A stretch of 64,000 bases of DNA from an uncultured Gammaproteobacteria bacterium (GTDB taxonomy: Bacteria > Patescibacteriota > Microgenomatia > UBA8517): the NCBI GenBank assembly GCA_964494885.1, contig CAZBTH010000003.1, positions 5,983-69,982 of the forward strand. Reading direction: 5' to 3'. Shown here piece by piece: positions 854-62,891 of the stretch (its first letter is position 1; each line of letters opens with the position of its first letter). Made by a program: the position numbers and the translations under genes. Below the pieces are notes generated by a model. It searched no databases. It was given only the letters and a program-made list of their open reading frames with translations, and was not told the DNA's origin.

Positions 854-2632
854 ATGTTTAAAATCTTTAAACGATTCTACTGGTTCATTTGGAAGCACAA
901 GTGGTGGTTCATCCTAGCGCAGCTGGCCACGACTATTGCTATCGTGCTTGAACTCATTACCCCCTATTTCTTTAAACTTTTTGTGGAAACTCTTCAAAGG
1001 AATGACTTGAATCATCTCTATACATTAATTCTGATCTTCATTGGAGTTTTGTTCGGCAGTCTTGTTTTTGACAATCTAAAGTTTTTTCTTGGCGACATTG
1101 TCTCGGTAGACACTGCCATAGACATAAGAACAACTATATTTAAATATATTCAGGAATTGGACTTCTCGTTTCATGCCGGAAAAAGCACTGGTTCTTTGAT
1201 TAGCGCTTTCAAGCGCGGTGACAACGCCTTTTGGGGACTTTACGAGCGCCTAAACCAAAGGATGTGGCAAATTTTTATCGGTTTTTTTGTAATGGGTTAC
1301 TTTTTTCTAAAAATCGATCCACGATTCATACTTATTTTCTTTATTTCTTTCCTCCTAACACTTGTGGCAACAAAATATCTGGCCGGTATGAACATCCGTA
1401 CGCGTGAAGAGTTTAACGAATACGAAGATAAAATATCCGGCATTATCACTGATAATTTGATCAATTACGAAACGGTAAAACTTTTTGCCAAGGAAAACTG
1501 GGAAATTGAACGGCTAAGGTCTACATTTCGTGATTGGAAAAAATTTCTTTGGAGGCATTTTTATACTTATAGGTATATTGACATGAGTGTTGGAAGTTTA
1601 ATCAACCTCTCCATATTCATTGTTTTGGCCTTTTCCCTGAACTTAATTAAGGCCGGTCAAATAGGCATCGGAGATTTTATCCTTGTTGTATCTTACGTAA
1701 ATTTGTTCTTTCCCAAGCTTTTTGATCTGATTTATGGTTTGCGCGAAATCTCAACAAGTTATGCTGACATCAAAAAATACTTTGATTTGCTGGATTACGA
1801 AATAGATGTAAAAGACCCAATAAGCCCTGTAAGCAAAGATCACGTCAACGGCATAATTGAATTTAAAGATGTCTCTTTTACCTACGGCGGGCGAAGCAAA
1901 AATGCGATTAATGGTGTTGATTTGGAGATTAAAAAAGGACAATCTGTGGCTTTGGTTGGTAGAAGCGGCAGTGGTAAAACTACGTTGGCAAAACTTTTAA
2001 TGAGATTCTACGATATCGATTCCGGAGAAATAACAATCGATGGAGTAAATATTAAAGATTTTACAAAAAGTACTCTAAGGGGATTTGTCGGAGTTGTTCC
2101 CCAAGAGCCCATTCTTTTCAATAATACTATCGCCTACAACATTGGCTACGGCTTCGGACAGGGTCGTCGGACAGGGTCGGACCCTGTCAAACAACCCGCC
2201 CGGAAAGGGTCCGACCTTTCAGAAATTAGAGCAGCTTCAAAACTTGCCAATATTGATGACTTTATTGAAAGCCTAAAGAAAAAATACGATACAGAGGTCG
2301 GCGAACGCGGGGTTAAACTTTCCGGAGGCCAAAAGCAGCGCTTGGCCATAGCGCGGATGATATTAAGCGACCCCGATATTGTTGTATTTGATGAGGCTAC
2401 AAGCCATCTTGATAGCGAGAGCGAAAAACTTATTCAGGATGCGTTTTGGAAAGCCAGAAAGGGAAAAACTACCATCATCATCGCCCACCGTTTGTCTACT
2501 ATCATGAGGGCGGACAAAATTGTGGTTATGGAACATGGGCATATTAAAGAAACAGGAACTCACGAGGGATTGGTGAAGAAAAAAGACAGTTTGTATTCCC
2601 ACTTCTGGAATTTACAAATTAAATTGGACTGA
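854..2632 (+). CDS. ABC transporter permease/ATP-binding protein (MsbA-like exporter) with an in-frame palindromic insertion
   Basis: N-terminal TM domain. Walker A GRSGSGKTT, signature LSGGQKQR, Walker B IVVFDEAT, H-loop IIIAHRL. The track start at 827 is TTG; the ATG at 854 (MFKIFKRF) is more likely. Confidence 0.9.
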   Translation: MFKIFKRFYWFIWKHKWWFILAQLATTIAIVLELITPYFFKLFVETLQRNDLNHLYTLILIFIGVLFGSLVFDNLKFFLGDIVSVDTAIDIRTTIFKYIQELDFSFHAGKSTGSLISAFKRGDNAFWGLYERLNQRMWQIFIGFFVMGYFFLKIDPRFILIFFISFLLTLVATKYLAGMNIRTREEFNEYEDKISGIITDNLINYETVKLFAKENWEIERLRSTFRDWKKFLWRHFYTYRYIDMSVGSLINLSIFIVLAFSLNLIKAGQIGIGDFILVVSYVNLFFPKLFDLIYGLREISTSYADIKKYFDLLDYEIDVKDPISPVSKDHVNGIIEFKDVSFTYGGRSKNAINGVDLEIKKGQSVALVGRSGSGKTTLAKLLMRFYDIDSGEITIDGVNIKDFTKSTLRGFVGVVPQEPILFNNTIAYNIGYGFGQGRRTGSDPVKQPARKGSDLSEIRAASKLANIDDFIESLKKKYDTEVGERGVKLSGGQKQRLAIARMILSDPDIVVFDEATSHLDSESEKLIQDAFWKARKGKTTIIIAHRLSTIMRADKIVVMEHGHIKETGTHEGLVKKKDSLYSHFWNLQIKLD

Positions 2633-5650: not shown

Positions 5651-6448
5651 TTAGCATGTCTTCCTTGAATCTGCTTCATCCTTCGCTACAAGCAGCGAGG
5701 TATTTGCAGGTTCTCGAATAAAATATTTATCGATGAATTCACCCATTACTTTATTTACTTCCGCAACCACTGCCTTGTGACGGCGGTAGCCATGATCTGA
5801 ATTTAACTCGTGGAGCATTTTTGGCCCAGGAACAGATTCATATATTTCTTCAATTTCGCGGGGGGTGTAATACCTGTCGTCAGTCCCCGAGAATAATAAT
5901 TTTGGTTTCTTGCATTCTTTCAGAATAGCCAGAGTATCAAATTTTTCTCCGTCCTTAAAATATTCAATAGGTAGAGCAAATTCTTTCTGTTCCTTGGTCC
6001 TTTCACTTCCAGGTGGAATATCCCTATGCTCAATCTGAACTCCATCTTTGACAGACTTGGGAGGTGTAGGCGGTTCATACGAAGACATTACCAAAATAAT
6101 ACCGATTACATTTGGATTAACACTTGCCAATATAGCCACATTTCCACCTCGAGAGTGGCCAAGTAACAAAGTTGGCTTATTTCCATAATATTCAATTAAT
6201 TCATTAACGGCTTTAAGATAGTTGGTAGTTGTAAAAAGTTCGGTTCCTCCCGGACTTTCCCAGGTGCCGGGCGGGTCAATCGCCACAGTATAAAACCCTT
6301 TGCCGTCTAAATATTCCTGGTGGCTAACAAAATTGGCGTAATCTTTGGTATCAATCTTACCGGGAAGCATAAGAACGACTTTTGAAGCGTTTTTGTTCCC
6401 TTTTTCGTTTACCGCCAGTGTAAATGATTTAGTATTAACCAAATTCAT
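5651..6448 (-). CDS. Alpha/beta-hydrolase fold protein (dienelactone hydrolase/esterase-like)
   Basis: Nucleophile elbow LLLGHSRGG. Size and pattern fit an alpha/beta hydrolase. Confidence 0.6.
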   Translation of the reverse strand: MNLVNTKSFTLAVNEKGNKNASKVVLMLPGKIDTKDYANFVSHQEYLDGKGFYTVAIDPPGTWESPGGTELFTTTNYLKAVNELIEYYGNKPTLLLGHSRGGNVAILASVNPNVIGIILVMSSYEPPTPPKSVKDGVQIEHRDIPPGSERTKEQKEFALPIEYFKDGEKFDTLAILKECKKPKLLFSGTDDRYYTPREIEEIYESVPGPKMLHELNSDHGYRRHKAVVAEVNKVMGEFIDKYFIREPANTSLLVAKDEADSRKTC

Positions 6449-6493
6449 ACTTGAAGTATACCAAAGTCTGAAAGATGTGTTACAGCGCCTTGC

Positions 6494-6511
6494 AAGGTCG
6501 GACCTTTAAAG
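6494..6511. repeat. REP-like palindrome (upstream flank of the RAYT gene)
   Basis: AAGGTCGGACCTTTAAAG, a half-site-plus-core copy of the TTTAAAGGTCGGACCTTTAAAG palindrome. Confidence 0.8.
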
Positions 6512-6527
6512 ATAATATTTAATTAAC

Positions 6528-7217
6528 ATGCCCACAAAAAACTCCATTAAAATTTACGCAGAAAACACTATCTATCATGTTTACAATCGCGGCGTGGAAA
6601 AAAGAGATATCTTTCTAGACGAACAGGATTATAAAGTTTTTCTTGGATACCTAAAAGAATACTTGTCCCCACCCCCAAGTCTTGAAGATAGAATAAAAAA
6701 ATCTTTTACCTTAAAAGGTCGGACCTTTAAAGGTGTATCAAGACAGCCCAATAATTACTGCGAAAAAATTGATCTTTTGGCGTATTGTCTAATGCCCAAT
6801 CATTTTCACTTCATATTAAAACAAAATGATGACAAGAACACTTTGAAGGAATTTATGCGATCCCTACTTACAAGGTATTCAGTATATTTCAATAAAAAAT
6901 ATGAGCGTGTCGGATCGTTATTCCAAGGTAAATATAAAGCGATTATCGTAATGGACGAAGTCTATCTACTCCATCTGTCGAGATATATTCACATAAATCC
7001 TTATGAGATAACCAAAGATCTTGTAAACGCATATTCTTCTTATGCCGAATATTTAGGCATTAGGCACACAGATTGGATAAAACCAAAGCTTATACTTTCC
7101 TATTTTACCAATCAAAAAACGACCCCCGAATTTACAGCAATCAATACTTATAAAAGTTTCGTAGAAAATTATTTAAAAGATAATTCGAACATATTGGAAG
7201 GTCTAAGATTAGAGTAG
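6528..7217 (+). CDS. IS200/IS605-family Y1 (HuH) transposase, REP-associated tyrosine transposase (RAYT)-like
   Basis: YHVYNRGVEKRDIF, HuH motif LMPNHFHFIL, catalytic-Tyr motif RYIHINPY (compare YIYINP in E. coli RAYT). Flanked by REP palindromes and carries one internal copy. Confidence 0.85.
   Translation: MPTKNSIKIYAENTIYHVYNRGVEKRDIFLDEQDYKVFLGYLKEYLSPPPSLEDRIKKSFTLKGRTFKGVSRQPNNYCEKIDLLAYCLMPNHFHFILKQNDDKNTLKEFMRSLLTRYSVYFNKKYERVGSLFQGKYKAIIVMDEVYLLHLSRYIHINPYEITKDLVNAYSSYAEYLGIRHTDWIKPKLILSYFTNQKTTPEFTAINTYKSFVENYLKDNSNILEGLRLE
6711..6735. repeat. REP-like palindrome inserted in frame inside the RAYT gene
   Basis: TTAAAAGGTCGGACCTTTAAAGGTG, translated as LKGRTFKGV. Confidence 0.8.
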
Positions 7218-7241
7218 CTTTAAAGGTCCGACCTTTAAAGC
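7217..7241. repeat. REP-like palindrome (downstream flank of the RAYT gene)
   Basis: GCTTTAAAGGTCCGACCTTTAAAGC, a 25-nt near-perfect palindrome that overlaps the RAYT stop codon. Confidence 0.85.
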
Positions 7242-7799
7242 TTAATCGGTTTCGTATTCAATCACGACCCAAGGAGTTGGTTTATTAAAGCCGCACATTC
7301 TTAAGACATCAATTGAAGCCTCCCTATGTTTACCGTTTTCCACTCTTGAACCCCGAATTGCGATTTCGTCATTCTTAAAAAGGTTTTCATATACCACCCT
7401 ATCATGTATCACCTGCCCTAATCCATATAAATATTGCGGAAGGTTGTCGGTATGTCTTTTCAATTCACTGACATCGTGGGTTTCTGAATATTCTTTGAAT
7501 TTATGTTCAAATTCTCCGTATTCAGGATAGCCTTTAGGCTTAATTGGGTTTTGCTCTCTTAGAAACTTTGCCGACATTAATTCACCCCACGCTTGAGTAT
7601 CAATAACTCCTTGGCTATTTACAACACCCAGCTGATTAAGATACTGATTTAATAGCTGTCTAACACCGGCAGCTGCAGCCGGATCTTCGTGGCTTTTCTC
7701 TACAAGCCATGCCCAAAGCTTATCAATTTCTTCTGCACGCGTTTCCGAAGAACGCCTCTCGAATTGCTCTCCTCCTCTACCGAATCCACCCATATCCAT
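7242..7799 (-). CDS. Hypothetical protein, probably translationally coupled to the upstream UppS gene
   Basis: Its start lies 3 nt after the UppS stop. No recognisable motif. Confidence 0.45.
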   Translation of the reverse strand: MDMGGFGRGGEQFERRSSETRAEEIDKLWAWLVEKSHEDPAAAAGVRQLLNQYLNQLGVVNSQGVIDTQAWGELMSAKFLREQNPIKPKGYPEYGEFEHKFKEYSETHDVSELKRHTDNLPQYLYGLGQVIHDRVVYENLFKNDEIAIRGSRVENGKHREASIDVLRMCGFNKPTPWVVIEYETD

Positions 7800-9839: not shown

Positions 9840-9869
9840 TTGTTCTATTGTTCTAGAACAGTAGAACAA
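9840..9869. promoter_or_regulatory. Operator-like 17-bp inverted repeat between divergent genes
   Basis: TTGTTCTATTGTTCTAG / CTAGAACAGTAGAACAA, one mismatch, centred on CTAG. Confidence 0.5.
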
Positions 9870-15880: not shown

Positions 15881-15952
15881 TGCCCTCAGAGGGAATTGAA
15901 CCTCCATCTTACCCTTAGGACGGGTCTGCTCTATCCGTTGAGCTATGAGGGC
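15881..15952 (-). tRNA. tRNA-Arg (anticodon CCT)
   Basis: The reverse complement folds as a cloverleaf. Acceptor GCCCTCA/TGAGGGC, anticodon loop GTCCTAA, T-loop TTCAATT. CCA not encoded. Confidence 0.8.
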
Positions 15953-15961
15953 ATATTTACC

Positions 15962-16036
15962 TGGTCGGGGTGCTGGGAATTGAACCCAGTGTCTTTACGT
16001 CCCGAACGTAACGTGATACCGATTCACTACACCCCG
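15962..16036 (-). tRNA. tRNA-Pro (anticodon CGG)
   Basis: Acceptor CGGGGTG/CACCCCG, D-stem GTGA/TCAC, anticodon stem TTACG/CGTAA, loop TTCGGGA, T-arm CTGGG-TTCAATT-CCCAG. CCA encoded. Confidence 0.85.
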
Positions 16037-17722: not shown

Positions 17723-19009
17723 CTATATCAAGAGCTTTTTATACTTCTCCCCGTCCTTGTATGGCCCTATTATGGCCAAATTCAAGTGATCTTTAACAAA
17801 TATCTTTTTAGCTTCGTTTACGACTTCTTCTTTTGTCACTTTACCGATTCTCTTGTAAAGTTCGTCCGGAGTTAAAACCTCTTTCAAAAACATCACCTGT
17901 TCTGCAAAAAAGTCGCCTGCTGCTTGAGTATCTTCCAAGGAAAGCGCAATATGGCCCTTAAGATATTCTTTTGTTTTTTCCAACTCCTTGGGGGAAATCG
18001 GAAACTTGCCGTCCGCCAGACCGTAGAGTTGATCCAGAATAACTTTAATTGCTTCTTCGCTCTTGCCCGTATCCACACCTGCATAAAACCCTGTATATCC
18101 TACTTCGTTAAATTTATCTCCTGCCGGTTTAACAGCGTATGCCAATCCACGACGTTCCCTGACTTCTATAAACAACCTTGAACTCATAGGCCCTGCCAGT
18201 ATTGTGGAAAGTACACTTTGGGCAAATCGTCCCGAATACCCCCTGCCCTCGCTTAAAAAACCAAGGATTATATGAGCCTGTTCAACCTTTTTGATTTTAA
18301 GTTTAAATTTAGGACTTTTTTGTTCCGCTTTAAAGGTCTGACCTTTAAAGTCACTTATAGTTTTTCCACCTAGTGGGTGGAGAGAAGTAAAATATTTATT
18401 TACTAATTCAAGGGCTTCTTTTTCTGTAATACCGCCAGAAACTGAAACAAACATATTTTCGGGATAGTAATGTCGTCCTCTGTAAAGTTCGAAGTCGCTT
18501 TTAGTTATTCGTTTTACGCTCTTTGCTTCCCCACCTATATCCCACCCCAATGAACTACCTTTAAAAATTAGCCCCTCAAAAACATCGTGAATTTTTACCA
18601 TTGGAGTATCCTCGTACATCGCAAGTTCCTGAATAATCGTCCCTTTTTCGCGTTCTATCTCCTCGGGTTTTAGAAGCGGAGAAAGAACCATGTCACTTAA
18701 TACATCCATTGCGGTTTCGACACTACCTGAACGGGATTTTATATAAAAATTTGTCCAATCCTTACTTGTTGCCGCATTAAACTCTCCTCCTATCGAGTCC
18801 ACCGCCTCACTAATTGCCTTAGCGGAAGGTCTTTTTGCACTACCCTTAAAAACCATGTGTTCTAAGAAGTGGCTGATACCGTTGATTCGTTTGTCCTCAA
18901 ATCTTGACCCGGTTTTGACCCACACAGTTACGGTTACCGACTCCAACCCCGGCATGGGGACAGTTACAACAGTCAAACCGCTTTTTAGTTTATGAAGTTT
19001 GTATTCCAT
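17723..19009 (-). CDS. M16-family zinc peptidase (pitrilysin/insulinase-like) with an in-frame REP insertion
   Basis: Inverted zinc motif HFLEHMVFKGS (HxxEH). The likely start is MEYKLHKL at 19009. Confidence 0.8.
   Translation of the reverse strand: MEYKLHKLKSGLTVVTVPMPGLESVTVTVWVKTGSRFEDKRINGISHFLEHMVFKGSAKRPSAKAISEAVDSIGGEFNAATSKDWTNFYIKSRSGSVETAMDVLSDMVLSPLLKPEEIEREKGTIIQELAMYEDTPMVKIHDVFEGLIFKGSSLGWDIGGEAKSVKRITKSDFELYRGRHYYPENMFVSVSGGITEKEALELVNKYFTSLHPLGGKTISDFKGQTFKAEQKSPKFKLKIKKVEQAHIILGFLSEGRGYSGRFAQSVLSTILAGPMSSRLFIEVRERRGLAYAVKPAGDKFNEVGYTGFYAGVDTGKSEEAIKVILDQLYGLADGKFPISPKELEKTKEYLKGHIALSLEDTQAAGDFFAEQVMFLKEVLTPDELYKRIGKVTKEEVVNEAKKIFVKDHLNLAIIGPYKDGEKYKKLLI
18328..18350. repeat. 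REP-like palindrome inside the M16 peptidase coding sequence
   Basis: CTTTAAAGGTCTGACCTTTAAAG, translated in frame as FKGQTFKA. Confidence 0.85.
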
Positions 19010-19117
19010 GAAGCTAGTATATAGTATATTGTATGTAGTATGTAGGGGGAGCGAAAACCATGAAACTAGGATATAGTACATTGTATATGGGGAAACATAG
19101 GCACAAGGACAAAAGAC

Positions 19118-20275: not shown

Positions 20276-21514
20276 ATGGATAACTATTTGAAAGCGTTTC
20301 CTGATACAAGTCCTGCAACAAAGCACCAACTGCGTCACCTTCTTTCACAAGTTGGTAATGTAGACGAAGTTTTGAGGAAGGCAACCGAAAACGGTGTACC
20401 ACCGAAGAGTTTGGTCCAATGGCTTGATAAAAGCATTCAGAGACAACAAAAATCCCCAAGCAATCAACCGGTTGTTGCAGCGACAGCACCGAGACGAGCC
20501 GGGGATCAATCTTCTGAACGAAAAGTGGAAGAGCCCGCAGAAGAAGCCGAGGATCCAGCAGAGGAAAAACCGGAATGGCGTGAACGATTGACGGGATGGC
20601 TCGGCCGTGGCAAGTCAGGTAAGAAAGCCAAAGCTGATCAAGTTCAAGCTGGCAATCGAGACAGCCAAAAAAATTCCGGCTTGGTTAAATGGATCGGAAT
20701 CGGAATTGTAATTGTAGCAGTTGGTCTGGCCGGCTGGCAGTTTATGAGGAACGGCATAGCCCTTCCCAGTTTCAGCGGTGACAGAACAGATTTCAATCTC
20801 TCTGGCGCGCCAAGTTTTATCATAACTCTACTGTTTGCCCCAACTATTCTTGTAGCCATAAACATTATCTCATTCGCCGAATCATTTTCCAGAAAAGAAA
20901 GATGGCTCCTTGACTGGTGGATCGCAATACTAACAGTTGTTGCTCTGGTTGAACGGGTCGCTATCGGCGAAAAGCTCTGGTTGTTCCTTTTGGGCGCATG
21001 CACCTTTGGAATGGCTGTAGCCATCTTTTTAAACGAATCTCAAGAACAAGGTGGTTGGTTCGATACAATCGACTTAACCCCGTTGGGGAACGCTGCCGGA
21101 ATGCTTTTGATCATACACGCCGCCAATTGGGCCGCCATTCCATATCCTACATATGTTCCAATCTGGATCGTGTGGATTGTTTTTGGCATTTCTATGATCA
21201 AGGAACTCGCACGAACATTTTGGCTTGGGATATTTGCAGTCGTAACTGGTGTAGCGGCAGCAATTACACTTAATATCTCGGTGATTTCTATCTGCCTCGC
21301 AGCATCGGTAATCGCGGTAACCTGGGGTTCACGTAAAGGATGGGTTCCAACGTCTCGGCACCGTAGCGATACCTCTGTTTTCTCGGGAAGTGGTCGAGAA
21401 CTTTCGATCATCATTCCCTATGACGTAGTCCTTGGGCAAGTTTATGCGTTCGCGTTAACAGCGTTTGCCCTGTACGGCAACTTTTTGGTTGCGACATTTA
21501 CAGGCGGGCAATAA
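20276..21514 (+). CDS. Polytopic membrane protein with a charged N-terminal cytoplasmic domain (island gene 1)
   Basis: AAAGGAGG SD 6 nt upstream of the ATG. Roughly 7 predicted TM helices. About 48% GC. Confidence 0.6.
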   Translation: MDNYLKAFPDTSPATKHQLRHLLSQVGNVDEVLRKATENGVPPKSLVQWLDKSIQRQQKSPSNQPVVAATAPRRAGDQSSERKVEEPAEEAEDPAEEKPEWRERLTGWLGRGKSGKKAKADQVQAGNRDSQKNSGLVKWIGIGIVIVAVGLAGWQFMRNGIALPSFSGDRTDFNLSGAPSFIITLLFAPTILVAINIISFAESFSRKERWLLDWWIAILTVVALVERVAIGEKLWLFLLGACTFGMAVAIFLNESQEQGGWFDTIDLTPLGNAAGMLLIIHAANWAAIPYPTYVPIWIVWIVFGISMIKELARTFWLGIFAVVTGVAAAITLNISVISICLAASVIAVTWGSRKGWVPTSRHRSDTSVFSGSGRELSIIIPYDVVLGQVYAFALTAFALYGNFLVATFTGGQ

Positions 21515-35567: not shown

Positions 35568-38126
35568 TCAACCTATTACAAAATTAATTACCTTGCCGGA
35601 TATAAAAATTGTCTTTTTAATGGTTTGCCCTTCCAACCACTTGGCCACATTAGCGTCAGATTTGGCCAATTTGGTTACCTCAGATTCTTGCTTCGAGATT
35701 CCAGATTCCAGCTTCAAAGTAGCCCTTAACTTGCCATTGACTTGAACCACAACCGTGACCTTATTCTGAACAATAAGTTTAGGGTCGTAGGAAGGCCAAG
35801 GAGCCTTGTGAATGCTAAAAGGCATACCTAAGACCTCTACCCATATTTCCTCCATCATATGAGGCGCAAAAGGGGCCAGGAGGAGGGCCAAAGCACTTAA
35901 GACCTCAGAAGTCTGATGACTGATATTTGATGTCTGAATCGAAGTTTGATTTTCGATCTTCGTTTTTCCGACTTCGTTTCTGATTTCAGACTTCTGACTT
36001 CCGGCTTCTGTTAGTGTATTCACCAGTTCCATAAGAGATGAAATTGCCGTATTGAATTTATAGTTTTCAATATCCTCCCCCACTTTTTTGATAGTTTGGT
36101 GGAGCTTTGATAAAACTTCACTGTTGACTGCTGATTGTTGACTGCTGATTGTTGACTGTTGGAACAGACGCCAAACACGTCCCAAAAATCTGGCTATTCC
36201 TTCAACTCCTGTTATACTCCACGGTTTCATTACGTCAAACGGTCCCATAAACATTTCATAAACACGAAGCGTATCAGCTCCAAATTTGGGAATAATATCG
36301 TCAGGTGTAATCACATTTCCCCATCTTTTGCTCATTTTGCGGGAATCAGGTCCAAGTATCCAACCAGGAGCACGGAGCTTTAAAAATGGCTCGTCTCCCA
36401 CAGATTTATCGATTAGACCTTGGTCAAATAAGAACTTCCAGAAAAATCTGGCAAAAAGTAAATGTTGGACAACATGTCCCCCGCCAACGTAGTCGTCAAC
36501 AGGAATAATATTTTCTTTTGAAGCAAACTCTTTAATATTCTTTGGATCGCAAAATCTCATAAAATACCAAGAGGAGTCAACATATGTATCCATTGTATCA
36601 ACCTCTCGTTTGGCCGGCTTTCCACAAATAGGACAGACTACATCTTTCTGGAAAGTTTTAGATCTGGCAATCGGACTTTCACCATGTGGTTGGAAATCGA
36701 CATCGGTAGGAAGAACAACTGGTAGATTTTTTTCTTCTACGGGAAACCAGCCAGCCATACCTTTAAAGGATGATCCTTTAAAGGTGTCGGATGCACAATG
36801 CTCGCAATAGATCATGGGGATAGGACAACCCCAATATCTTTGGCGGGAAATTAACCAATCACGGATATGGTAAGAGACCGTTCTCTTGCCAATTCCTTTA
36901 TCCTCAAACCAGTCCATAGTCTTTTGCAATCCCTCTTCGAAACTCAAGCCGTTTAGAAATTCAGAATTGATAAATTTTCCTTCCATCCCATGTTCAATAA
37001 CCTGTTCTTTTGTTTCTATTTCTGAAGTATCGCCGTCTTTTCCTACAATGACCCTAACAATAGGAAGGTCGTATTTTTTGGCAAACTCAAAATCATTCAA
37101 GTCATGTCCCGGACAACCCTGAACAGCTCCTGTCCCCACACCGGCAACTACAAAATCAGAAACCCAAACCGGAACTTCTTTGTTGTTTATAGGATTAATT
37201 GCATACAAACCGGTAAACACCCCTGTTTTTGTCTTATTGGCCACATTTGTCACATTAGATGAATTAGAAAGATGCTCTTTGATGTATTTATCTACACTTT
37301 CTTGATTCTCTTTAGGGATCTTAAGTTGTTTTAATAGTTTGTGTTCTGGAGCTAAAACCAGAAAAGTCATGCCGAAATTTACAGGAGCAGTTGTAAAAAC
37401 TTCTATTTCCTCGTCGGAATCAACAACCTTATATCGAATATTTATCCCTTCTTTCCTCCCAATCCAATTAACCTGCTGTCTTTTAACTTCGTCTTCCCAA
37501 TCAATTTTTTCAAGACCCGAGATTAAACGGTCAGCATAGGCAGTGATTTTAAAGAACCACTGATCCATATCTTTTTGTATTACTTCTGTATCACACCGTT
37601 CACATTTACCCTCAACCACTTGTTCATTGGCCAAAACTGTTTCATCTTTAGGACACCAATTGACAGGAGACTTCTTTTTGTAAGCCAAACCAGCTTTGAA
37701 AAGCTGAATAAATATCCACTGAGTCCATTTATAAAATTCGGGAGAACTTGTGTCAATTTCCTTATCCCAATCATAAGACATGCCGCTTATTTCCAATTGG
37801 CGTTTGAATGTTTTTATATTCTCGTGAGTGGATTTATCAGGGTGAATCCCGGTTTTAATAGCATAATTTTCCGCGGGAAGGCCAAATGCATCCCACCCCA
37901 TCGGATGAAGAACGGAATGACCCCTCATCCTAAAATATCGGGACAGGATATCTGTGCCAACATAGCCCTCAAGATGACCAACATGCATCGAGGCGCCGGA
38001 AGGATAAGGGAACATGTCCAAGATATACTTTTTCTTTTTTCCGGCTTCCGGAGTTTTGTAAACACCCTCCTTCTCCCATTTTTTTTGCCATTTTGGTTCG
38101 ACAACTGAATGGTCGTATTTATCCAT
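35568..38126 (-). CDS. leuS: Leucine--tRNA ligase with several in-frame repeat insertions
   Basis: HMGHLEGY (HIGH) and KMSKRWGN (KMSKS). Conserved editing and anticodon-binding regions. Confidence 0.95.
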   Translation of the reverse strand: MDKYDHSVVEPKWQKKWEKEGVYKTPEAGKKKKYILDMFPYPSGASMHVGHLEGYVGTDILSRYFRMRGHSVLHPMGWDAFGLPAENYAIKTGIHPDKSTHENIKTFKRQLEISGMSYDWDKEIDTSSPEFYKWTQWIFIQLFKAGLAYKKKSPVNWCPKDETVLANEQVVEGKCERCDTEVIQKDMDQWFFKITAYADRLISGLEKIDWEDEVKRQQVNWIGRKEGINIRYKVVDSDEEIEVFTTAPVNFGMTFLVLAPEHKLLKQLKIPKENQESVDKYIKEHLSNSSNVTNVANKTKTGVFTGLYAINPINNKEVPVWVSDFVVAGVGTGAVQGCPGHDLNDFEFAKKYDLPIVRVIVGKDGDTSEIETKEQVIEHGMEGKFINSEFLNGLSFEEGLQKTMDWFEDKGIGKRTVSYHIRDWLISRQRYWGCPIPMIYCEHCASDTFKGSSFKGMAGWFPVEEKNLPVVLPTDVDFQPHGESPIARSKTFQKDVVCPICGKPAKREVDTMDTYVDSSWYFMRFCDPKNIKEFASKENIIPVDDYVGGGHVVQHLLFARFFWKFLFDQGLIDKSVGDEPFLKLRAPGWILGPDSRKMSKRWGNVITPDDIIPKFGADTLRVYEMFMGPFDVMKPWSITGVEGIARFLGRVWRLFQQSTISSQQSAVNSEVLSKLHQTIKKVGEDIENYKFNTAISSLMELVNTLTEAGSQKSEIRNEVGKTKIENQTSIQTSNISHQTSEVLSALALLLAPFAPHMMEEIWVEVLGMPFSIHKAPWPSYDPKLIVQNKVTVVVQVNGKLRATLKLESGISKQESEVTKLAKSDANVAKWLEGQTIKKTIFISGKVINFVIG
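36760..36784. repeat. REP-like palindrome inside the LeuS coding sequence
   Basis: CCTTTAAAGGAT-G-ATCCTTTAAAGG is a perfect 12+1+12 palindrome, translated TFKGSSFKG. It lies in an insertion relative to canonical LeuS. Confidence 0.85.
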
Positions 38127-62244: not shown

Positions 62245-62303
62245 CCCTACAGCATATTGACAAGTCGTGGACTAAACACTATAATAATTATAGTGTTTGG
62301 ACT

Positions 62304-62891
62304 ATGAAATATAATAAAAAGTCGATCGCCAGTATTCTGCGTTCTCCAAAAACAGTTTTTACCTTTAAAGACGTTTCATTAATTTGGGGCGACACCAATA
62401 AAAAAAATGTTATAGCAAGCGCTAATTATTACGTTAGAACCGGTCAACTCATTAGAGTTAGAAAGGGAATCTATAGCAAAAACGAAAATTATGACCGAAT
62501 GGAACTGGCTAATAGAATTTTTGTTCCATCATATATTAGTTTCGAAACAGTGTTGGGCAAGGAAGGTGTTAATTTTCAATATTACGGCCAAATATTTATT
62601 GCCTCTTATCTTACCCGTAACATAATTATCAACAACCAAACTTATTCATTTAGAAAAATTAAGAATGAAATCCTTGTAAACCCATTAGGAATCAACAACG
62701 AAAATGACATATCAACGGCAACCAAAGAGCGGGCTTTTTTGGACACCATTTATATAAACGGGGACTATTATTTTGACCACATTGATTCACTTGATTGGAA
62801 AAAGATATTTGAAATCCTTCCAATATATAACAAAAAACAAATGGCCAAAAAAGTTAAATATTGGTACAATTATTTTAAAGAAAACAGATAA
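62304..62891 (+). CDS. AbiEi-like antitoxin, copy 3
   Basis: Immediately upstream of copy-3 AbiEii. ...YYVRTGQLIRVRKGIYSK. Confidence 0.6.
   Translation: MKYNKKSIASILRSPKTVFTFKDVSLIWGDTNKKNVIASANYYVRTGQLIRVRKGIYSKNENYDRMELANRIFVPSYISFETVLGKEGVNFQYYGQIFIASYLTRNIIINNQTYSFRKIKNEILVNPLGINNENDISTATKERAFLDTIYINGDYYFDHIDSLDWKKIFEILPIYNKKQMAKKVKYWYNYFKENR

Follow-up and report, generated by a model that had tools for sequence, protein, structure and literature searches.

A translated palindrome in an M16 peptidase gene of Candidatus Woesebacteria, probably a copy from a REP-type hairpin family with a RAYT-like transposase

Results

We examined a 23-bp palindrome at positions 18328–18350 of a 64-kb stretch of a Candidatus Woesebacteria genome (candidate phyla radiation (CPR)/Patescibacteria), where it is read in frame within the gene of an M16B (pitrilysin-family) peptidase. 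"The window" denotes this whole stretch, and coordinates are window positions unless a locus is named (L-numbers for fetched loci, P-numbers for proteins). The palindrome is probably a copy of a hairpin family of the repetitive extragenic palindrome (REP) type that belongs to the system of a RAYT-like (REP-associated tyrosine transposase) Y1 (HUH) transposase. Its site is old, orthologously persistent and evolving rather than a private, recent insertion, because orthologues of the peptidase that are 63–87% identical carry the same, a different or a decayed palindrome at the same codons.

Repeat family and transposase gene

The M16 copy (ctttaaaggtctgacctttaaag) is a perfect palindrome with arms of 11 + 1 + 11, and it differs from the copy standing directly 3′ of the RAYT stop codon (7218–7240) solely in its unpaired centre base. 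A sequence-only reading had called it near-identical to the palindromes flanking the RAYT gene, and the comparison places them in the same family. Folding as single-stranded DNA gave −7.9 kcal/mol (z = −4.4), the stable stem-loop expected of a REP, a short palindrome of 20–40 bp. A 22-mer allowed up to three mismatches matched four places in the window (6490, 6711, 7219 and 18329) and none in 100 shuffles, while the core GGTCNGACC occurred six times against ~0.4 expected from base composition. The pattern TTTAAA-N9-TTTAAA was found at three sites, with self-complementary cores in 3/3. The full window tally was four canonical copies, one variant and two copies of a second type, and one metagenome-assembled genome (MAG) held six exact copies on five contigs.

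The repeat unit can be written as (C)CTTTAAAGG, five bases, CCTTTAAAG(G), with self-complementary outer arms and an inner stem that is mostly GGTC-N-GACC, such that the architecture is one of two self-complementary CCTTTAAAGG units placed 15 bp apart. Intergenic copies have extended arms in common (GTACCC...GGGTAC), and element size ranges from 23 to 33 bp. The M16 copy is a singlet and not a REPIN doublet; abutting palindrome pairs were found only in the M16 gene of P0043 and in an insert of the window ABC transporter gene. A GTAG was seen at a single copy, the one that follows the RAYT gene (gaGTAGCTTTAAAGG), where the stop codon TAG and the preceding G supply it 5′ of the hairpin; there is no general GTAG tag among the copies. 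A scan of the whole window with Rfam at gathering thresholds returned two tRNAs only, so the REP element matches no Rfam family and a known RNA family is ruled out as the identity of the hairpin.

The transposase gene scored 36.2 bits with Pfam Y1_Tnp (cut-off 23), and H92 and H94 of the HUH motif and Y153 were invariant in 47 homologues. In a fold search, the AlphaFold model (mean pLDDT 88.9) had as its best PDB match 4ER8, the E. coli TnpA-REP bound to a REP hairpin (E = 7 × 10−7), with IS200/IS605 TnpA structures ranking after it; a profile of the RAYT alignment against PDB sequences gave no match, and only the fold search retrieved TnpA-REP. REP copies lie on both sides of the Y1_Tnp gene in the window and in L034, L018, L035, L057, L060 and L061, and the REPtron arrangement, in which copies flank their cognate RAYT gene, was found in the window (6490 and 7218) and likewise in L034, L057, L060 and L061. 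Because of the Y1_Tnp match, the HUH motif and tyrosine, the TnpA-REP fold match and the palindromes on both sides, the gene at 6528–7217 has the layout of a RAYT and would be expected to work like one, although as a distant member.

The window holds one RAYT copy, which adjoins an M32 peptidase gene as it does in L057 (RAYT 72% identical), and this synteny suggests vertical inheritance. The interval of L049 that corresponds to window 6448–7242 (20350–20875), in the genome of an 87%-identical M16 homologue, has neither RAYT nor REP between the prenyltransferase and hydrolase genes and carries a different 104-aa open reading frame (ORF) there. RAYT homologues number ~7,900, nearly all of ~227 aa and from Patescibacteria. 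Many relatives (within P0246–P0388) are 350–450 aa long with a C-terminal extension.

Distribution and reading frames

The exact 21-mer TTTAAAGGTCNGACCTTTAAA was present at 10 loci in species-representative genomes, including Gottesmanbacteria, Woesebacteria and one six-copy MAG, and at 37 metagenome loci. We then took a census of non-redundant TTTAAA-N9-TTTAAA sites over 496 kb (the window plus fetched loci), which contained 57 sites, 55 of them with palindromic cores. Among these 55, 38 were outside long ORFs, 14 were in the FKG frame, three in the LKV frame and none in the TAA frame. ORFs of at least 150 aa cover ~85% of the window, so that 38 of 55 copies outside long ORFs represents a strong enrichment between genes (P = 2 × 10−19), as in REPs. 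The M16 copy departs from this placement in being intragenic and translated, as are the roughly one third of copies that lie inside genes.

The sequence-only reading had held that intragenic copies use the one frame that avoids the embedded TAA. The peptides that it quoted for the three copies at 6711, 18328 and 36760 were correct, but two of the three frames are free of stops, giving FKGxTFK and LKVxPLK, and the latter (TTA-AAG-GTC-NGA-CCT-TTA-AAG) is open unless N = T. The LKV frame is used, with Pfam domains on both sides, in arginyl-tRNA synthetase (L003, SPLKVRPLKDE), glutamyl-tRNA synthetase (GluRS; L006, RPLKVRPLKVA) and a PMT_2 glycosyltransferase (L023), whereas copies read in the FKG frame lie in a GT4 glycosyltransferase, PheT, an M24 peptidase, a DEAD-box helicase, a second site in leucyl-tRNA synthetase (LeuRS), RpiB, and the M16 and LeuRS genes of the window. 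Across independent intragenic sites, with orthologues collapsed and RAYT left out, the ratio of FKG to LKV was 8:3, in line with the 4:3 expected from the removal of stops alone (P = 0.23). The absence of the TAA frame from intact genes is true by definition, and the only firm statement is that stops are avoided. With both open frames in use in intact genes, the repeat signal appears to lie at the level of DNA and not of protein. At four metagenome loci (L011 547, L031 56, L036 847 and L041 4553) the palindrome falls at codons 2–9 of the longest ORF, encoding a 126-aa protein, and the true start there is probably just downstream of it.

The M16 site among orthologues

The peptidase ORF spans 17723–19081 on the minus strand, and homology places the true start at 19009. 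Around the palindrome the ORF reads SDFKGQTFKAEQ, translated as D-F-K-G-Q-T-F-K-A; both Pfam domains are present and the HxxEH site is intact, confirming the earlier claim of in-frame translation in an intact gene, and homologues are named Candidatus Woesebacteria or Patescibacteria. The palindrome sits in the variable inter-domain linker, just upstream of the family-conserved F226-K, and the F-K conserved family-wide is its right arm. F226 was invariant among 29 aligned M16 sequences, and in 120 homologues the linker was near-constant in length (~36 aa) and ended in a conserved F-K-x-x-Q, with one to four FKGxx units within the linker in a large share of homologues.

We compared the DNA of the site across ten orthologues, with identities given to the window protein. 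The nearest relative (P0002, 88%) has no palindrome and a linker two codons shorter, and L037 (53%) has no palindrome. P0003 (87%) carries ACCTTTAAAGAC-acg-GTCTTTAAAGGT, P0007 (75%) has a perfect palindrome at the same codons (CTTTAAAGGTC-g-GACCTTTAAAG), and in P0043 (66%) two perfect palindromes stand end to end (CCTTTAAAGGAG-g-CTCCTTTAAAGG and CTTTAAAGGTC-t-GACCTTTAAAG). Partly decayed versions (GATC/GATC, GAC/GTC, GGT/ACC) were found in P0078, P0113, P0051 and P0004 (63–80%), and only partial repeat-like units in P0092 (64%). Inner stems at this site were GGTC/GACC, GAC/GTC, GGAG/CTCC or GATC/GATC, elsewhere decayed or absent, and decayed peptides at the orthologous M16 and LeuRS sites include FKGQEF and SQGESFG. 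The earlier description of the palindrome as inserted in the M16 gene finds no support here, since the orthologues with palindromes at the same codons show no REP-sized change in length and the nearest relative has none.

Three stem pairs had changed on both sides (8 cells compared to 2.3 ± 1.2 when shuffled, with 0 of 500 shuffles reaching 8, in a small alignment). The G..T and D..V states of the site were interleaved relative to overall identity, which would fit template replacement better than repeated four-base compensatory mutation. Given the peptide FKGQTFK, we calculated from codon frequencies that the codon usage of the window would yield this exact DNA ~0.6% of the time. L052 and L057 could not serve to match the stem type at M16 to that of the RAYT within one genome, as they belong to different lineages (M32 peptidases 66% identical).

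Insertions in other genes

Compared with orthologues or with solved structures, three other genes hold genuine in-frame insertions, namely LeuRS and the ABC transporter in the window and RpiB in a metagenome. The window LeuRS reads C-ASDTFKGSSFKGMA-GW compared to C-GW in orthologues 54–61% identical (+14 aa). The short form was found in 94 of 120 homologues, including the nearest (P0390, 88%), and at this position a minority carried peptides that are REP-like or decayed (FKGQAFKG, LKGQTLKG, LKGETLQG, SQGESFG); the empty site has no TTTAAA. Compared with PDB 2vvo, RpiB (L033) has 13 extra residues inserted, and the copy lies within them. The two second-type palindromes, GACAGGGTC-G-GACCCTGTC (GACAGGGTCGGACCCTGTC) at 2170–2188 and GAAAGGGTCCGACCTTTC at 2205–2222, both have the core GGTCNGACC and together account for ~16 aa inserted in frame into the ATPase domain when compared with ABCB4; palindromes of this type also flank a 47%-identical RAYT in L014 and L022. 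We considered a 15-nt unit (GGTCNGACCTTTAAA) inserting at a pre-existing TTTAAA, which would explain both the frame and the five-residue periodicity, and dropped it as a general model, given that TTTAAA is missing from the empty LeuRS site and the LeuRS, RpiB and ABC inserts measure 39–48 nt.

Within LeuRS (36690–36850), the residues around the insertion (GWFPVEEKNLPVVLP) are closer to P0391 and P0396 (68–69% identical) than to P0390 (GWQPVPDTDLPVKLP), and this resemblance of the flanks hints at local recombination or segment replacement.

The copy within the RAYT gene

The sequence-only reading had counted the copy at 6711 among the insertions, which does not hold, as the motif is conserved in the 120 closest RAYT homologues (59–100% identical, of ~7,900). 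These share F-T-L-[QK]-G-x-[TSPA]-F-K-G-[VI]-P-R-Q-P-K-N-Y, ~30 residues before the HUH motif, and in the model the peptide encoded by the internal copy forms the tip of a predicted β-hairpin (strands 56–62 and 65–70). Within this motif, G (GGN) occurred with T, S, P or A (NCC) in 92 homologues and D (GAY) with V or I (GTC/ATC) in eight, with no crossed G/D pairings (Fisher P = 5 × 10−12, a value overstated since the sequences are phylogenetically related). Because all 92 + 8 were matched and none crossed, the paired residues follow codon complementarity and not chemistry. Distant and often longer RAYT relatives keep G-R-x-F-[RKQ]-G with non-pairing residues, for example G..V and G..I, which implies that a protein constraint exists in RAYT; the relatives of 350–450 aa keep F-T-V-[KN]-G-R-x-F-x-G-x-P-H-Q-P-K-N-Y without palindrome-compatible residues. 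In the 47%-identical RAYT the motif is absent, and its flanking palindromes differ and share only a GGNCGGACC core.

Internal and upstream copies agreed in their inner stem at seven loci (the window, L034, L018, L035, L057, L060 and L061), which represent four stem types, GGTC/GACC, GACC/GATC, GAC/GTC and GGCC/GGCC (Table 1). For P0188 (L-K-G-Q-A-F-K-G), a GGCC-N-GGCC flank was predicted from the protein beforehand, and the locus carries TTGCAAGGCCTGGCCTTTAAA upstream. Gene conversion acting locally on the three repeats, which lie within 700 bp, could have produced the match between internal and upstream copies, or the match could reflect a functional need for matching copies. We propose tentatively, and at somewhat short of an even chance, that RAYT carries a working REP copy in frame and that coding and non-coding copies exchange sequence, so that enzyme and substrate co-evolve as a unit which the dispersed copies, such as those in M16 and LeuRS, follow. 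Under such coupling, a change in the REP inner stem would have its counterpart in the peptide of the transposase (G-R-T, G-Q-A, D-H-V, D-R-I), and changes in the peptide would likewise appear in the stem.

Table 1 REP copies inside, upstream and downstream of RAYT genes.
Locus	Internal	Upstream	Downstream
Window	TTAAAAGGTCGGACCTTTAAAGG	TTGCAAGGTCGGACCTTTAAAG	CTTTAAAGGTCCGACCTTTAAAG
L034	TTGCAAGGTCGGACCTTTAAAGG	identical to internal	CTTTAAAGGTCGGACCTTTAAAG
L018	GGTCAGACC core	GGGTCAGACCC core	incomplete
L035	GGTCAGACC core	GGGTCAGACCC core	incomplete
L057 (F-K-D-R-I-F-K-G)	TTTAAAGACCGGATCTTTAAAGG	TTGCAAGATCGAATCTTTAAAGG	CTTTAAAGACCGGATCTTTAAAG
L060 (L-Q-D-H-V-F-K-G)	TTGCAAGACCACGTCTTTAAAGG	identical, 23/23	CCTTTAAAGACGTGGTCTTTAAAGG

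Five of the seven RAYT loci have TTGCAA as the left arm of the upstream copy, and L018 and L035 have TTGCAG and TTGAAG in its place. A TAATAT follows 17 nt after TTGCAA in the window, 9 nt before the RAYT ATG, and other RAYT loci likewise have a TA-rich hexamer. The TTGCAA of the upstream REP may be a −35 element, which would make the RAYT promoter overlap the REP; a consensus promoter scan did not call TTGCAA-17-TAATAT, which agrees at 8 of 12 consensus positions and is below threshold.

The features of the window are collected in Table 2. The two tRNAs, its sole Rfam matches, are adjacent genes on the minus strand at 15881–16036, and two other strong inverted repeats, at 9840–9869 (TTGTTCTATTGTTCTAGAACAGTAGAACAA) and 62265–62307 (a 21-nt arm pair), are unrelated to the REP family.

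Table 2 Palindromes of the repeat family and associated genes in the 64-kb window.
Feature	Position	Strand	Description
Second-type palindromes (two)	2170..2222	+	in ABC transporter gene 827–2632, ATPase domain
Upstream REP	6490..6511	+	asymmetric, TTGCAAGGTCGGACCTTTAAAG; left arm TTGCAA
RAYT-like Y1 (HUH) tyrosine transposase gene	6528..7217	+	229 aa; HUH motif NHFH at residues 91–94, conserved Tyr 153
REP-like copy inside RAYT ORF	6711..6733	+	TTAAAAGGTCGGACCTTTAAAGG; encodes L-K-G-R-T-F-K-G, codons 62–69
Downstream REP	7218..7240	+	directly after RAYT stop codon, CTTTAAAGGTC-C-GACCTTTAAAG
M16B (pitrilysin-family) peptidase gene	17723..19009	-	intact, 428 aa; Pfam Peptidase_M16 + Peptidase_M16_C
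REP copy in the M16 gene	18328..18350	read on -	F-K-G-Q-T-F-K; CTTTAAAGGTC-T-GACCTTTAAAG, 23-bp perfect palindrome
LeuRS gene carrying the variant palindrome	35568..38126	-	
Variant palindrome	36759..36785		ACCTTTAAAGGAT-G-ATCCTTTAAAGGT; part of a 14-codon in-frame insertion (ASDTFKGSSFKGMA) in LeuRS

Discussion

The M16 palindrome is most simply explained as a member of the REP family that accompanies the RAYT-like gene. Its place in the family, the linkage of the family to the RAYT, the frames in use, the variation among orthologues and the genuine insertions in other genes are all directly shown by the sequences. In the mechanism that we infer, both for the enzyme and for the direction of sequence transfer, the unit would fold as single-stranded DNA into a hairpin with a stem of ~10 bp, which by analogy with the family would be the kind of substrate that RAYT and IS200/IS605 transposases bind and cut. 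Inside genes, only copies in permissive loops and in one of the two stop-free frames would persist, and these are translated as FKGxTFK or LKVxPLK. At the M16 site the hairpin would be kept while its inner stem changes, most likely through re-templating or gene conversion from resident REPs, or through transposase-catalysed loss and regain; selection on the M16 hairpin itself is also possible.

Several observations weigh against this explanation. The GTAG tag was not found beside the M16 copy, whose flanks are ccg and tca, and the copy number comes from the 64-kb window. The best NCBIfam hit of the transposase is REP_Tyr_transpos (NF047646), yet at 45.6 bits, under the cut-off of 80, and with only residues 80–169 aligned; its activity as a transposase would follow by analogy with the family. 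Most census loci were fetched with the exact pattern, which biases them to the GGTCNGACC core, and core diversity is underestimated because the pattern itself was used for fetching. No pair of empty and filled sites was found for M16 among close relatives, and the linker is just 2 aa longer than that of the 88%-identical relative. In M16, GluRS, a DbpA domain and the M24 peptidase, the palindrome overlies native sequence without a REP-sized gain in length, as would not be expected from a simple cut-and-insert model. In these overlays, native residues often make up the right arm; for the DbpA domain, a query against PDB gave no match and the lack of length change rests on Pfam coordinates alone.

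The same M16 orthologues bear on a different account, in which the hairpin is a host-functional DNA or RNA element, such as a protein-binding or mRNA-processing site, with RAYT as a domesticated partner and selection keeping fixed orthologous positions. Different yet complementary inner stems at the same M16 codons in lineages 63–87% identical, and likewise at one LeuRS site, are what such selection would leave; the syntenic position of RAYT by the M32 peptidase in the window and L057, with the vertical inheritance that it suggests, and the overlap of the upstream REP with a promoter-like TTGCAA-17-TAnnnT before RAYT point the same way. We nevertheless consider a host function unlikely, given that the closest relatives lack the element in M16 (P0002) and LeuRS (P0390) with no sign of harm, that many orthologous copies have decayed (for example to FKGQEF and SQGESFG), and that the host genes have no function in common and the element has no Rfam family match.

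Less likely still is that the palindromes are made locally, by template switching or fold-back copying at a pre-existing TTTAAA (encoding F-K or L-K) that copies the complement of neighbouring codons. Such an origin would account for the four cases in which the right arm is formed by native residues (M16 F226-K, M24 'VRG', the DbpA domain and GluRS) and for inner stems that vary by site and lineage and are always exact complements (GGT/ACC, GGA/TCC, GAC/GTC, GAT/ATC). It would not lead one to expect that unrelated genes, intergenic DNA and the surroundings of RAYT all carry the 9-nt core GGTCNGACC, nor that intergenic copies have the extended GTACCC...GGGTAC arms in common, and the empty LeuRS site without TTTAAA and the 39–48-nt inserts in LeuRS, RpiB and ABC speak against it as well. 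A protein-selected FKGxxFKG motif with the DNA palindrome as a by-product, to which the conservation and confident β-hairpin of the motif in close RAYT homologues and the G-R-x-F-[RKQ]-G with non-pairing residues in distant ones would lend some colour, is very improbable, as other genes read the same DNA as LKVRPLK and most copies are intergenic, the residue pairs track codon complementarity (92 + 8, none crossed, P = 5 × 10−12) and the host proteins are unrelated; a purely protein-level motif is rejected by the second-frame and intergenic copies and is contradicted for the M16 copy.

Read as a REP/RAYT system, the family appears widespread in CPR/Patescibacteria, which have tiny, gene-dense genomes. 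A sizeable share of its copies is translated in essential genes (tRNA synthetases, peptidases, an ABC ATPase), and these provide a natural map of permissive insertion loops, with the repeat as a source of peptide variation that is periodic over five residues (15 bp). For annotation, FKGxxFKG-type inserts in CPR proteins would be treated as repeat-derived and not as functional motifs. The coupling between the RAYT coding sequence and the REPs is the part most worth attention, and the co-variation of RAYT-internal and flanking REPs, if general, would offer a testable handle on the long-term matching of a transposase to its DNA substrate.

Comparison with known systems

REP/RAYT systems are viewed as intragenomic replicators of long standing that are inherited vertically, and their repeats are extragenic by name; to our knowledge the systems have been studied almost only in Proteobacteria. 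As in the REP/REPIN-RAYT systems of that group (E. coli TnpA-REP, 4ER8; Pseudomonas REPINs), short and mostly intergenic hairpins flank a single Y1 HUH gene, whose model has TnpA-REP as its best fold match and which, from its synteny in the window and L057, is apparently inherited vertically. Unlike the proteobacterial RAYTs, the one described here has a CPR host, falls below the NCBIfam cut-off and carries an extra β-hairpin of ~30 aa. Its repeats also differ from proteobacterial REPs, being near-perfect palindromes of two CCTTTAAAGG units, with no general GTAG tag, that occur as singlets and not as REPIN doublets, and roughly one third of them are translated, including one inside the RAYT ORF that co-varies with the flanking copies. 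We found nothing relevant in the literature on REP or RAYT in CPR, although literature coverage was limited and this speaks only weakly for novelty.

The Y1 HUH fold is shared with the 'peel and paste' TnpA of IS200/IS605 elements, and the patchy presence of the LeuRS copy together with its precise absence elsewhere would fit seamless excision and target-specific insertion. Unlike IS200/IS605, the system here has no TnpB partner, no element of IS length and no conserved target tetranucleotide beside the copies. HIP1 of cyanobacteria is an 8-bp sequence present in thousands of copies, with no associated transposase that we know of. Like HIP1, the palindrome described here is short, occurs in coding regions where it is kept at the DNA level, and in several genes coincides with native protein sequence whose length is unchanged, whereas it differs from HIP1 in measuring 23 bp or more, in its low copy number and in its link to a RAYT.

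For the Rickettsia palindromic elements (RPEs), which are not known outside Rickettsia, we know of no dedicated transposase. Our elements resemble RPEs and the intragenic REPs of earlier work (PMC3733652) in being palindromes translated in frame within ORFs, with tRNA synthetase and further housekeeping genes among the hosts. Di Nocera et al. 2013 (PMC3733652) described REPs inside genes for tRNA synthetases, repair proteins and helicases, equated some of them with RPEs and interpreted them as tolerated insertions in permissive regions, and they defined REP classes with a conserved GTAG or CGTC tetranucleotide at one end; RPE-1 is described there only as longer palindromic insertions. Descriptions of RPEs set them apart from the elements studied here, which are 23–33 bp long, linked to a RAYT and hosted by Woesebacteria, with different complementary stems at the same codons. 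REPs, RAYTs and REPs translated inside genes are thus already known, and what differs from earlier descriptions is the CPR host, the units spaced by 15 bp, the high translated fraction, the persistent coding site with complementary stems and the co-varying copy inside the RAYT gene.

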